NCBI GenBank assembly: GCA_045533905.1
Contig: JAZSIR010000003.1
Location: forward strand, 28,976-92,975
Reading direction: 5' to 3'
Source: Clostridia bacterium
GTDB taxonomy: Bacteria > Bacillota > Clostridia > UMGS1883 > UMGS1540
DNA: 64,000 nucleotides
Made by a program: the position numbers and the translations under genes
Shown: positions 7,210 to 42,505 of the stretch, piece by piece
Layout: every line of letters starts with the position of its first letter
Numbering within the stretch: position 1 is the stretch's first letter
The notes under the pieces: generated by a model
What the model saw: the letters and a program-made list of their open reading frames with translations, nothing else
Told to the model about the DNA's origin: nothing
Databases searched by the model: none

Positions 7210-8157
7210 ATGAGTAAGATTACCATCATCGGGGCCGGAAGCGTCGGCGCCACCATCGCGTACACCATTTCCGCAGAGAACTTGGCATCGGAAATTGTAC
7301 TTATCGACATCAACAAAAAGAAAGCGGGCGGGGAAGTGCTCGACATTATGCAGGGCACAAGCTTCCGCGATTCTATTTCCATTTCCTCGGGCGATTATGA
7401 AGATGCCGTGGGGTCTGACATTGTAATTATTACTTCGGGCATTGCAAGAAAACCGGGGCAGACCCGCATCGACCTTGCGCAGACGAATGTAAACATTATC
7501 AAAGAGATTGCACCGAAGATTGCGGCGGCCGCACCGAATGCCACGTATATTATCGTAAGCAATCCCGTAGATATTATCACATATGTATTTATGAAGAAAT
7601 CGGGGCTTCCTGAAAACCAGATTCTGGGCTCCGGCACCATGCTCGACACTTCGCGTCTTCGTCATGCGCTTGCCGAGCATTTCGGTGTAGCGCAGAGAGG
7701 CGTGCATGCGTACGTATTCGGCGAACACGGTGACACAGGCTTTGTACCGTGGACAAACGCGCGCATTTCCGTTACGGGTGTAGAGGAATACGCAGCACTT
7801 GCCCGTGCCTGCGGGGATGACATTCCGCCGCTCGATACGGCACAGATTGAAGACCGCGTCCGCAAATCCGGTGGCACGATTATTGAAGGTAAGGGTGCTA
7901 CGTATTACGCAGTTGCGATGAGCGTATGCCGCCTTTGCAGCGTTATCGGGGCAGAAAAGAGCTCCATCGCCACCGTGTCTACTATGATGCACGGCGAATA
8001 TGACCTTGAGGATGTTTGCCTCAGCGTTCTTACCCGCGTAGGGCGCGGCAAGGTTATCGGTCGCCTGCCCATTCCGCTTTCAGACGAAGAGTATGAAAAG
8101 CTCCACAAGAGTGCAAACGCGCTGAAGAATGTAATCAGTCAGTTGGATCTTTCCTAA
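7210..8157 (+). CDS. ldh: L-lactate dehydrogenase (NAD-dependent)
   Basis: KITIIGAGSVGATIAY Rossmann motif, LIDINKKKAGGEVLD, IVSNPVDI, and the catalytic His region GEHGD. Length 315 aa. Confidence 0.9.
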   Translation: MSKITIIGAGSVGATIAYTISAENLASEIVLIDINKKKAGGEVLDIMQGTSFRDSISISSGDYEDAVGSDIVIITSGIARKPGQTRIDLAQTNVNIIKEIAPKIAAAAPNATYIIVSNPVDIITYVFMKKSGLPENQILGSGTMLDTSRLRHALAEHFGVAQRGVHAYVFGEHGDTGFVPWTNARISVTGVEEYAALARACGDDIPPLDTAQIEDRVRKSGGTIIEGKGATYYAVAMSVCRLCSVIGAEKSSIATVSTMMHGEYDLEDVCLSVLTRVGRGKVIGRLPIPLSDEEYEKLHKSANALKNVISQLDLS

Positions 8158-40193: not shown

Positions 40194-41372
40194 ATGTTTT
40201 ACGAAAAAACAAACATTTTCCCGTCAGACGGCGTGTCGAACTACCGTATCCCGAGCTGCATAGCAACAAAAAATGGTACCTTTATCGCATTTGCAAATGA
40301 TAGAAAAAATACGCTTATGGACCGCGCTGTGGAAATCTCCGTTGCCAGCTGCCGAAAGGAAGCAGGCGGCGCGTGAACAAAGGCCGAAACGCGCGTAGCA
40401 ATCCCCGACTGGGCGATTCAAGCAGGTGCGCTTACGTATGACGAAGAAATCGATAAAGTCATCTATTTCAGCGTCCGTATGGCGGTAGCTACGAACGAGT
40501 GGTACATCTATTCCAAGGAAGAACTCGCGGAAATTGCCGCAAAAACCCGCGAAAAAGAGAAAGCGGCAGGCGCAAAGGATGGCCACTACCGCCTCGTTTC
40601 CACCGATGACGGCAAAACGTGGACAGAGGAAGAGCACATTCCGCTCCCGATTCTTAAAAAACACATCGACGGAAAGGAATATTCTGTTTGCGGACAAACA
40701 CACGGCTGTGCCCACGGCATTCAGCTTAAAAACAGCAAGTATCGCGGAAGACTCGTTTCGCCTGCACGCTTTACCATCGGCCAGTTTGATAACCGCGAGG
40801 ACCTTAAACAGTGCGTATATAACTGCGCCATTTATTCCGATGACCACGGCAAAACGTGGAAAACCTCGGGTAGCGTGCAGATTACAACGGGCGAAGGTAC
40901 GCTTATTGAAAACCGTGACGGAAGCCTTACCTATAATTCCAGAGCGTACCATCAGGACGGGCGGCGCCGCCTTGCCACGTCCTATGATGGCGGCGAAACG
41001 TGGGAGGATTTCCGCGAAGACGATTTCCTCCTTGAGGAAAAGAAGCAAGGCTGCAATGCTTCCTTTATCCGCGTGGAGCTTTCTGAAATTTTGGACACTT
41101 CGCTTCTCCCCCAAAACGCGGAAGGGCTCGTGCTCTTTGCAAACCCGAGGGCAGAAACGCGTGAGAATATGTGCATCTGCATTTCATATGACGGCGGCAG
41201 AACATGGGCAGACATAAAGGTCGTAGACCCCGGATTTGCCTCCTATTCGTCCCTTGCATGGAACAAGGGAACGCAAACCTTCTGTCTTCTCTATGAGCAC
41301 GGCGAAGAGCACGCGAACAGTTCCGGCATATCGGCAATTGAATTTGACCTCGAATGGCTTCTTGCGAAATAA
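40194..41372 (+). pseudogene. Exo-alpha-sialidase (GH33, BNR/Asp-box) interrupted by a single in-frame TGA at 40374-40376
   Basis: ORF 40194-40376 carries the YRIP motif. ORF 40479-41372 is in the same frame and has four Asp-boxes: STDDGKTW, SDDHGKTW, SYDGGETW, SYDGGRTW. The only interruption is one TGA. TGA is used as a stop elsewhere in the window. Confidence 0.65.
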
Positions 41373-41376
41373 AAAA

Positions 41377-41406
41377 GGGCGGCTGCACCGTAGCCGCTTT
41401 TTTATT
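41377..41406 (+). terminator. Rho-independent terminator after the sialidase gene
   Basis: GCGGCT-GCACCGT-AGCCGC followed by TTTTTTATTTATTTTTT. Confidence 0.7.
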
Positions 41407-41483
41407 TATTTTTTGTTGCATATATTCCGTCTCTTTGAACATAATAAGGAATGTAGTTTCGCATTCTACATCTTTTTTTCTAT

Positions 41484-41520
41484 CTCCTATAGGGAAAAGA
41501 CGGCCACATGGCCGTCTTTT
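41484..41520 (+). terminator. Second rho-independent terminator; it may end a short unannotated transcript
   Basis: AGACGGCCACATGGCCGTCT hairpin followed by TTTTTCTTTTC. It is preceded by a possible TTGCAT-18-CATAAT promoter about 70 nt upstream. Confidence 0.5.
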
Positions 41521-41559
41521 TCTTTTCTTTTATTTTCTGTTCTGCAGGTACAGGCCGTG

Positions 41560-41951
41560 CGGCTCGCAGACGAACCCTACGAGTTCGGTACAATCTCTCC
41601 TTCTCCGCAAAACGATTTTCTGGTGTATGGAGAGATACGGTGCGCTCATGCCCTCTACCGACCGCCTTCGGCGGTGCCCGGTATTTGGCGCGTGCTCCCG
41701 ACTCCGCAGTCTGCAAAGTTCCTTTGCAGCTGCTTCGACGAACTCTCGAGAGGTCTCATCCCGTTTTTCCTGCTCCTCAAAAGAAAGAAGCTGTTTTTTG
41801 GCTGCGGAGAGATACTCTGCGCCGGCGATTTTTCGACCATCTGCGATGGTGCCCGAAAAATCCTGCCGTGCTCGAGACTCCGCAGTCCGCCCGTCTTCGA
41901 CGCGCGGCTGCTTCGACGAACTCTACGAGTTCTCACTCTCCTTCTCCGCCA
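41560..41951 (+). repeat. Degenerate tandem repeats of about 160-175 nt, each ending in a tRNA-Ser 3'-end-like fragment
   Basis: Related blocks lie at about 41563, 41722 and 41893 (GCGGCT.GC..GACGAAC(C/T)CTACGAGTTC...). Two end in CTCTCCTTCTCCGC(C)A, at 41595-41608 and 41937-41951. This sequence is identical to the 3' end of the adjacent tRNA-Ser(GCT) but lies on the opposite strand. Confidence 0.5.
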
Positions 41952-41984
41952 AACAAAAAAGAGATACGAATGTATCTCTTTTTC
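41951..41984 (-). terminator. Terminator of the tRNA-Ser operon (minus strand)
   Basis: AGAGATAC-GAAT-GTATCTCT, flanked by an A-run and a T-run. It lies directly after the tRNA 3' end. Confidence 0.7.
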
Positions 41985-42076
41985 TGGCGGAGAAGGAGAG
42001 ATTCGAACTCTCGCACCAGTTTCCCAGCCTACTCCCTTAGCAGGGGAGCCCCTTCGACCTACTTGGGTACTTCTCC
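41985..42076 (-). tRNA. tRNA-Ser (anticodon GCT)
   Basis: 92 nt: GGAGAAG-TA-CCC..GGG-CTCCC-CTGCTAA-GGGAG, a long variable arm, GAGAG-TTCGAAT-CTCTC, CTTCTCC-G-CCA. The D stem is 3 bp, typical of class II tRNAs. Confidence 0.85.
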
Positions 42077-42167
42077 ATATATTAAATTTTCCGTGCCGTC
42101 AATCCTGCAAGGCAGGCCGATGAAGGCGACGGGCCATTGGTGGCGATGCTTTGCAGGAGACGGAATG

Positions 42168-42254
42168 TGGCGGAGAAGGTGGGATTCGAACCCACGGCTC
42201 TTTCGAGTCACTGGTTTTCAAGACCAGCTCCTTAAACCGCTCGGACACCTCTCC
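42168..42254 (-). tRNA. tRNA-Ser (anticodon TGA)
   Basis: 87 nt: GGAGAGG...CTGGT-CTTGAAA-ACCAG, a long variable arm, GTGGG-TTCGAAT-CCCAC, CTTCTCC-G-CCA. Confidence 0.85.
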
Positions 42255-42271
42255 CTGCATGAAACAAAAGT

Positions 42272-42300
42272 ATTATAGCAAAAAAAGCGCGCGGTGTCAA
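42272..42300 (-). promoter_or_regulatory. Consensus sigma-A promoter of the tRNA-Ser operon
   Basis: On the minus strand: TTGACA, a 17-nt spacer, TATAAT, about 17 nt upstream of the tRNA 5' end. Confidence 0.65.
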
Positions 42301-42360: not shown

Positions 42361-42468
42361 TTGACAAAGGAGAGGGGGCGTGGTACAATATATAAGATAA
42401 ATCTTTAAGTGCGATGCAGAGACGTCGGCAAGATTGTGAAAAGGTGCAGCGGAAGGCTGTATTTTTTG
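42361..42468 (+). promoter_or_regulatory. pyr operon promoter plus a leader with a PyrR-box-like motif and an attenuator hairpin
   Basis: TTGACA-17-TACAAT, with TGg upstream (extended -10). The leader UUUAAGUGCGAUGCAGAGACGUCGGCAAG resembles the B. subtilis PyrR binding loops (..CAGAGAGGCUG.CAAG). A GCAGC-GGAAG-GCUGU hairpin followed by AUUUUUU lies at about 42446-42468. Confidence 0.4.
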
Positions 42469-42505
42469 GCGCGTCTTGCTTTTTGTATGGAAAGGAACCT
42501 TAAAA

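Follow-up and report, generated by a model that had tools for sequence, protein, structure and literature searches.

A conserved, structured core of about 102 nt in the T-loops of tRNA-end copies beside a tRNA-Ser operon of a Clostridia bacterium

The DNA analysed here, hereafter the window, is a stretch of 64,000 nucleotides (nt) from a Clostridia bacterium (assembly GCA_045533905.1, contig JAZSIR010000003.1, positions 28,976 to 92,975). Between a sialidase-like BNR gene and pyrC it contains a non-coding island of about 0.9 kb, in which a tRNA-Ser operon is accompanied by an array of repeat units built around a structured sequence of about 102 nt that we call the core. A preliminary description, made from the letters alone, had recognised two tRNA-Ser genes on the minus strand, and both were indeed called by ARAGORN and by Rfam: tRNA-Ser(TGA) at 42168-42254 (58.2 bits) and tRNA-Ser(GCT) at 41985-42076, whose part from T-loop to CCA is the recombination site used in relatives. 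The promoter that it had called perfect (TTGACA-17-TATAAT, 42272-42300, minus strand) gives 12 matches out of 12, carries a TG 5' of the -10 box and is also kept in two related loci, L001 and L088. A bidirectional terminator hairpin, AAAAAGAGATAC / GTATCTCTTTTT (41956-41983; orthologue at 117-149 of L001), is common to tRNA-Ser(GCT) and to unit C of the array. The open reading frames (ORFs) that cross the island had been suspected to be spurious; since they have no Pfam match and run antisense through the tRNAs, we rejected a coding potential of the island.

In the segment 41537-41951 a module of ~175 nt is present three times, twice complete and once truncated. Degenerate tandem blocks had been noticed here, and families of direct repeats are in fact collinear, with a spacing of 170-178 nt, and define units A (41535-41612, partial), B (41613-41783) and C (41784-41954), the repeats being confirmed by a three-way alignment. 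The 19-mer CGTGCTCNNGACTCCGCAG occurs twice in the window for 0.15 expected occurrences. Tandem Repeats Finder missed the array, because the copies of the unit are too diverged. Read on the strand of the tRNA genes (minus), the module begins with the 3' end of tRNA-Ser(GCT) in inverted form, hereafter the foldback, followed by the 5' strand of a T-stem and TTCG; then comes the ~102-nt core, and the module ends with T, AT, the 3' strand of the T-stem, the 3' strand of the acceptor stem and CCA. The core splits the T-loop after G57 and replaces A58. As had been described, the 16-nt tRNA end CTCTCCTTCTCCGCCA faces its own inverted copy across the terminator hairpin, standing at 41936-41951 (plus strand) and, as the end of tRNA-Ser(GCT), at 41985-42000 (minus strand), with the hairpin 41956-41983 in between; a copy with one mismatch is found at 41595-41610. 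Allowing up to three mismatches, CTCTCCTTCTCCGCCA is matched four times in the window, where shuffles predict 0.45, and none of 100 shuffles reached four. The preliminary description was right that such copies are inverted but not that they are only inverted, as units B and C carry direct degenerate copies at their other end.

In unit C, the foldback arm (41917-41951, plus strand) is formed by the hairpin CGAACTC-TAC-GAGTTC and, after it, by the T-arm and acceptor end in inverted, uninterrupted form, with a perfect match to the tRNA over the final 16 nt; this segment is degenerate in the orthologous unit of L001. The arm opens with 5 nt (41917-41921) complementary to the tRNA-strand GTTCG that adjoins core C, the T-loop sequence after which this core is inserted. 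Core C (41814-41916, minus strand, 103 nt; nhmmer E=2e-24, 104 bits) reads TCGAAGCAG, hairpin P3, CTGCGGAGTC, long hairpin P2 and GCGCAGAGT, and is followed by the direct degenerate tRNA 3'-end copy ATCTCTCC..GCAGCCA (41799-41813, minus strand), which corresponds to T-loop positions 59-60, the T-stem 3' strand, the acceptor and CCA. Unit B has the same plan, with a foldback arm (41739-41783, plus strand) made of the GTTCG complement, a hairpin and the degenerate inverted tRNA end TTTTCCTGCTCCTCAAAAG, a core B of 102 nt with the architecture of core C (41637-41738, minus strand; E=1.2e-22, 102 bits) and the direct degenerate tRNA 3'-end copy ATCTCTCCATACACCA (41621-41636, minus strand). The base of P2 is CGG/CCG in core B and CTC/GAG in core C, and an inspection of units B and C by eye also revealed compensatory differences between their hairpins. 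Unit A is truncated (41537-41610, minus strand) and holds the first ~34 nt of a core (41537-41570), GTTCG (41571-41575), a hairpin and an inverted tRNA end without mismatch over 17 nt (41592-41608). The tRNA-end copy of the foldback is thus perfect over 16-17 nt in units C and A of the window; it is degenerate in unit B, in L001 and in two copies from other contigs, L082 and L085.

These last copies came from a scan of metagenomes with a pattern shared by units B, C and that of L001. Three true relatives were found, L082, L084 and L085, all in gut and rumen bacteria and each at a different tRNA; the two remaining matches of the five (L081 and L083) are due to chance. The unit of L085 is convergent with a tRNA-Glu(CTC) gene and its tRNA fragment is derived from tRNA-Glu(CTC), and that of L082 stands in the same relation to tRNA-Arg(ACG). 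In L082, L084 and L085 the core has the identical position in the T-loop and the same orientation, and each copy has flanks that correspond to its local tRNA: GAGAG/TAGAG-TTCG, core, T-ATCTCTCC.. for Ser, GGGAG-TTCG, core, T-ATCTCCCCCGGCGCACCA for Arg and GGGG-TTCG, core, T-CTCCCCTAGGCACTACCA for Glu. The last 18 nt of the L082 and L085 units are identical to the neighbouring tRNA, and a terminator follows directly. The blocks of the island had been taken for scars of attachment (att) sites or products of inversions; this does not account for a covarying core of ~102 nt that recurs at the T-loops of other tRNAs in other organisms.

The fourth context is of another kind. L084 contains (7614-7787, minus strand) a complete tRNA-Arg(CCT) gene with a 102-nt insert in its T-loop, which ARAGORN does not call. 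The sequence 5' of the core gives a sub-threshold match to the Rfam tRNA model (25.4 bits for a threshold of 29), and this 5' part also matches tRNA regions of Prevotella and Bacillus-phage records. When the core was deleted in silico, ARAGORN called tRNA-Arg(cct), with a T that would stand at the junction, position 58. The gene lies downstream of a HAD-like gene and has its own TTGCCT-17-TATAAT promoter (7827-7799) and a 17-bp terminator right after the CCA (7612-7575). There is neither a duplicated tRNA 3' end nor a second tRNA nearby, and this complete, unduplicated tRNA implies that the core can be a simple insertion. The fragment-type units (window, L082 and L085) have the foldback on the upstream side of the split T-arm, at three different tRNAs in all, and this recurrence suggests that the formation of the units generates it as a by-product.

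In all, five full and two partial copies are known. Core B is 71% identical to core C, and core C is 80% identical to the core of L085 and 79% to that of L084. Core C is therefore closer to foreign copies than to its neighbour, which indicates that the array is not a recent local duplication. In the orthologous unit of L001, P2 resembles that of core C and the tip of P3 that of core B, a mosaic that points to exchange among copies.

The consensus of the core on the tRNA strand is TCGRAGCAG, P3, CTGCGGAGTC, NNN-GA-GC-A, the long variable hairpin P2, GC-GYA-NNN and T. We tested this structure on a MAFFT alignment of six related copies, the same six from which it had been derived. In the proposed helices 88.7% of the cells are paired, versus 25-40% when the partners are slid; changes on both sides affect 8 of the 20 pairs, a number reached by one shuffle in 500, and the covariation score is 0.307 versus 0.137 in shuffles (0 of 500 reach it). 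RNAalifold and a hand alignment also support the helices. Three pairs at the foot of P2 vary as CTC/GAG, CGG/CCG and CGC/GCG; the distal part of P2 differs wholly in sequence between copies and always forms a stable hairpin, and the P3 tips of the orthologous units of the window and L001 differ and still pair. A pairing of the GUUCG 5' of the insert with CGAGC inside the core is invariant in the predictions. The tRNA strand was favoured in all five cores folded, the energies on the tRNA strand and the other strand being -46.8/-46.5, -49.4/-46.6, -57.0/-48.3, -55.9/-41.5 and -49.1/-43.4 kcal/mol. Coming from six sequences that also served to derive the structure, this is good but not conclusive evidence that the hairpins are kept by compensatory change. 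Two other readings of the conserved motifs were rejected: the GA/GCA internal loop is not a kink-turn, as the adjoining triplet covaries as Watson-Crick pairs, and the GTTCG/TCGAAG junction is not a target-site duplication or palindromic junction, as the TCGGAG of the Glu copy mismatches its own T-loop.

We then searched more widely. With nhmmer and a covariance model (R1), exactly the known copies were recovered, with E-values from 1e-20 to 1e-35, and no further copy appeared in the window or in the other collected loci (0.7 Mb). No Rfam 15 family was found on any copy with E up to 10; only the tRNAs pass, and 41540-41950 stays far below the thresholds. The core was not found in phage, plasmid or IMG/VR collections, the IMG/VR pattern matches (L086, L087 and L115-L117) being chance matches in coding DNA, and blastn of the interrupted tRNA against plasmids and phages gave matches to its 5' part only. 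The core is thus a conserved and folded sequence that matches none of the RNA-family or sequence libraries searched. Full-text searches of the literature gave no description of T-loop insertions in bacterial tRNA genes; the paper that came nearest deals with introns in the anticodon loop and D-loop (PMC13011429). The genes next to the copies are housekeeping genes (sialidase-like, pyrC, TetR, gltX and, as read by eye, HAD-like). No other contigs were found with the exact flanking proteins, no close relatives of the sialidase-like protein turned up (the next in rank being 60% identical), and in a search for an empty site of L085 through TetR orthologues the loci L091-L114 differ in synteny and contain neither the core nor tRNA-Glu.

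The end of tRNA-Ser(GCT) itself is variable in relatives. Among 80 pyrC loci of related uncultured Clostridia from GTDB, only L001 (pyrC 88% identical) shares the arrangement of tRNA-Ser genes and unit. L001 has an extra AT-rich module of 95 nt, with its own terminator, between the old terminator and the tRNA, with 10-nt direct repeats GGCGGAGAAG; the window is without this module. In L088/L090 (pyrC 80% identical), an element of ~7 kb lies between tRNA-Ser(GCT) and a 23-nt direct repeat TTCGAATCTCTCCTTCTCCGCCA spanning T-loop to CCA, and in L090 it encodes a tyrosine integrase, HTH genes, a Phage_rep_org_N protein and a ParE/RHH pair. Beside the 23-nt repeat in L090 we found a 95-nt module nearly identical to that of L001, and L001 therefore shows the site of the 7-kb element in its empty state. 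One tRNA end is found in three allelic states (window, L001 and L090), and the number of units varies from 2.5 in the window to at least one in L001 and none within the 21 kb read of L090. The suggestion of the preliminary description that the tRNA-Ser 3' end acts as an att site fits these loci: in close relatives, the 3' end of tRNA-Ser(GCT) is a repeatedly used integrase hot spot. On both att arms of the 7-kb element there are AAAGGGAAAAC repeats, likely arm-type integrase sites. Beyond its far end, L090 carries a second integrase gene (1-723) and, on the opposite strand, a degenerate T-arm-like sequence (~2210-2240), which suggests a further history of integration. The L001 contig begins inside a unit; tandem units may break short-read assembly, so that arrays would be under-represented in metagenome-assembled genomes.

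Taking these results together, we read the island, with a probability of about 50%, as an array that accreted at a proven integrase hot spot and is made of a structured element of ~102 nt, not described before, that inserts into T-loops and persists in dispensable copies of tRNA ends. The core would be a small, non-autonomous, site-specific insertion element recognising the universal GTTCGA of T-loops, and it could act either as DNA or as an intron-like RNA. Since insertion into an essential tRNA would be lethal, copies would persist in dispensable T-arms, either in tRNA 3'-end duplicates left by integrases next to hot-spot tRNAs or in a tRNA that is redundant, as Arg(CCT) may be. The array would have grown by successive events beside the tRNA rather than by a recent local duplication. 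Small non-autonomous elements with strict targets include miniature inverted-repeat transposable elements (MITEs), palindrome-associated transposable elements (PATEs) of IS200/IS605, and IS1397 and ISKpn1, which insert in the loops of repetitive extragenic palindromes (REP). Like them, the core is about 100 nt long, has no ORF, keeps a fixed orientation and a target in a hairpin loop, and carries a hairpin near each end; as in IS200/IS605, it lies on one strand 3' of a fixed 4-5-nt target (GTTCG), without terminal inverted repeats or target duplication. Unlike in PATEs, its two hairpins, P3 and P2, are dissimilar in size and sequence, with distal parts whose sequence is free to vary. No autonomous TnpA or TnpB partner was found in the window, the collected loci, IMG/VR, phages or plasmids. 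To our knowledge, the T-loop has not been described as a target of miniature insertion elements.

Several observations weigh against this interpretation. We found no filled and empty pair of sites for the core itself among the loci collected, no terminal inverted repeats or target-site duplication, and no transposase, integrase or reverse transcriptase adjoining any copy; no recombinase lies near the L084 or L085 units, and the only integrase is that of the separate 7-kb element of L090. All copies come from one exact-pattern scan, which sees neither decayed or divergent copies nor true copy numbers. Folded singly, the cores reach modest z-scores (-0.3 to -3.1), and the counts of G-U and A-C combinations in the shared helices, 2 versus 2, identify no strand. 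A foldback at three different tRNAs suggests a systematic mechanism beyond a simple insertion model. Finally, L082 and L085 have perfect 18-nt copies of the tRNA end despite diverged stems of the adjacent terminators, which could reflect selection for function rather than passive persistence.

Other explanations have to be weighed against a T-loop-inserting element. The units could themselves be miniature integrative elements: each ~190-nt unit (terminator, foldback, GTTCG and core) would be a tiny integrated circle sharing an 18-nt segment of identity with the tRNA 3' end and moved by an integrase encoded elsewhere, the array would consist of stacked integrations resembling the accretion of cis-mobilizable elements (CIMEs), and the core would be a recombination or regulatory module rather than a separate insertion. 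Work by Williams in Nucleic Acids Res in 2002 reportedly describes tyrosine-integrase elements at the T-loop sublocation of tRNA genes, and tandem accretion or CIME remnants at such sites. Indeed, one crossover within the 18-nt segment yields exactly the observed order of tRNA, terminator, unit, direct repeat of the tRNA end and old terminator, with an intact tRNA at one end and the displaced 3' fragment at the other; the direct repeats run from T-loop to CCA and are perfect over 18 nt in L082 and L085, as over 23 nt in L090, where a proven integrase element uses the same tRNA with such repeats; several repeats are nested at one tRNA; and the 95-nt module of L001 and L090 is a very small insert flanked by tRNA-end repeats. 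In the window, the direct repeats of the tRNA end are degenerate (41799-41813 and 41621-41636) and the locus is polymorphic, but no integrase is found inside the bounded DNA, and units of ~190 nt encode no protein. The conserved part, moreover, lies inside the T-loop of the displaced fragment, and in L084 the core interrupts a complete tRNA gene whose 3' end is not duplicated and which has no other tRNA close by. To move a single family of cores, integrases with three or four different tRNA specificities would be required, the attP arms of the real integrase element carry their own repeats and bear no similarity to the core, and covarying hairpins with a free distal-stem sequence are unusual for protein-binding att arms. 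We consider this explanation possible, though on the unlikely side. A decayed local tandem duplication of a tRNA-Ser gene and its spacer (period ~180 nt), leaving pseudogenes or neutral scars, would agree with a unit period of 171-178 nt, near the 183-nt spacing of the two tRNA genes, and with the decay of the tRNA-end copies in units B and C, yet the core is unlike a tRNA body, also occurs at Arg and Glu tRNAs of other contigs, is less alike between B and C than between C and foreign copies, and has covarying hairpins; we give it hardly any credit.

The remaining explanations place the function of the core in RNA. It might belong to a family of host small RNA (sRNA) genes on a tRNA-like scaffold, transcribed on the tRNA strand by read-through or from an own promoter and processed like a tRNA through the acceptor/T-arm mimic and CCA. 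Strong terminators directly after CCA in L082, L084 and L085, the full promoter-to-terminator unit of L084, the more stable folding of the tRNA strand in all five cores, a structure kept by compensatory change even between the orthologous units of the window and L001, and the perfect 18-nt tRNA-end copies of L082 and L085 speak for it. Known sRNAs from tRNA 3' external transcribed spacers (3'ETS), e.g. 3'ETS-leuZ of E. coli, are likewise structured RNA-like sequences directly downstream of tRNA genes on the same strand, but here a terminator separates tRNA and units, and the units, which contain tRNA-end copies, are found again at unrelated tRNAs. For a host gene, we would not expect four different tRNAs with tRNA-specific flanks in different genomes, nor its absence in the relative L090; units B and C are without own terminators and have decayed tRNA-end copies, and in the foldback units the CCA is base-paired and not free. 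An sRNA family therefore appears improbable to us. A bacterial T-loop tRNA intron, in which the core would be removed and the exons joined to give a functional tRNA-Arg(CCT), the fragments at other tRNAs being products of intron mobility, is less probable still. Like tRNA introns (bacterial group I, rarely group II, and archaeal bulge-helix-bulge introns), the core of L084 is a structured insert in an otherwise complete tRNA gene missed by tRNA finders; this gene has retained an acceptor stem of 7 bp, the other three stems (D, anticodon and T), promoter and terminator, and the predicted invariant pairing would join the GUUCG of the 5' exon to the CGAGC of the core. However, 102 nt is far below the size of known self-splicing introns, bacterial tRNA introns having at least ~200 nt, and we know of no bacteria with the archaeal splicing endonuclease. 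No copy has a match to the Rfam group I or group II intron models, the joined exons would give TTCG-T-NN, without the near-universal A58, and most copies are in non-functional tRNA fragments. In a survey of 4,934 complete bacterial genomes, the anticodon loop was the sole location of tRNA introns, except for one group II intron in a D-loop (PMC13011429). A wider idea is that the T-loop element acts at the RNA level, either as a new type of tRNA intron or self-processing insert or as a guide-RNA scaffold whose 18-nt tail would direct an unlinked nuclease or recombinase to tRNA genes, the foldbacks being footprints of the copying mechanism; this too we regard as improbable. The arrangement resembles the omega RNAs of TnpB and IscB, with a conserved scaffold, ~18 nt equal to the flanking target (here the tRNA 3' end) and then a terminator, and the GTTCG left of the insert could act as an adjacent target motif. 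There is no TnpB, IscB or IsrB gene near any copy, however, no Rfam match of omega-RNA type, and the 18 nt of the core units are simply explained by the host T-arm.

If the insertion-element interpretation holds, the core would define a previously undescribed class of elements that uses the most conserved loop of tRNAs as its address. It would represent a second layer of parasitism at integrase hot spots, living in the tRNA-end duplicates that others have left. Some tRNAs that seem to be missing from metagenome-assembled genomes might be explained, as tRNA finders are blind to genes interrupted in this way. The layout of a scaffold followed by an 18-nt target may also offer a testable starting point for finding an RNA-guided or RNA-processing activity in Clostridia of the gut and rumen.

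The two tRNA-Ser genes of the operon are separated by a spacer of 91 nt (42077-42167, minus strand) which, as described before, contains its own inverted repeat (42103-42114 / 42147-42158) and forms a long hairpin (CCTGCAA/TTGCAGG and CCGTC/GACGG). This hairpin is kept in relatives (351-445 of L001 and 3552-3647 of L088), and by eye the change of the outer stem from CCGTC/GACGG to CCGCC/GGCGG in L088 is compensatory. In other Clostridia (L101-L106), no more than 13 nt separate the same pair of tRNA-Ser genes.

On its left, the island is bounded by an AT-rich stretch with terminator hairpins (41373-41524, plus strand). A scan placed these at 41373-41403, after the sialidase-like gene, and at 41491-41524, and a weaker third terminator-like hairpin can be seen by eye at ~41448-41480. 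A small RNA had been proposed at 41407-41520, where we found nothing beyond the two terminator hairpins; a match to MicX at 41362-41525 (31 bits for a gathering threshold of 75) is an artefact explained by these two hairpins at its ends. The sialidase-like gene (40194-41372, plus strand) aligns in one frame over the full 392 amino acids of its homologues. It contains an in-frame TGA (40374-40376), so that the ORF covers the last 297 amino acids only; the gene could be a pseudogene, and a sequencing error or a recoded stop would give the same picture. From 41491 to 42038 (plus strand), 548 nt are free of TAA, TAG and TGA in all three plus-strand frames, the longest such stretch in the window. 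None of 500 dinucleotide shuffles of 41400-42300 reaches this length (maximum 213); the repeats and the base composition explain only a part of the stretch. On the other side of the island, 5' of pyrC, there is a near-consensus promoter, TTGACA-17-TACAAT (42361-42389, plus strand), followed by a sub-threshold match to the PyrR-binding site (42398-42486; 32.4 bits for a gathering threshold of 54), and this upstream feature (42361-42486) is probably an ordinary pyrimidine attenuator.

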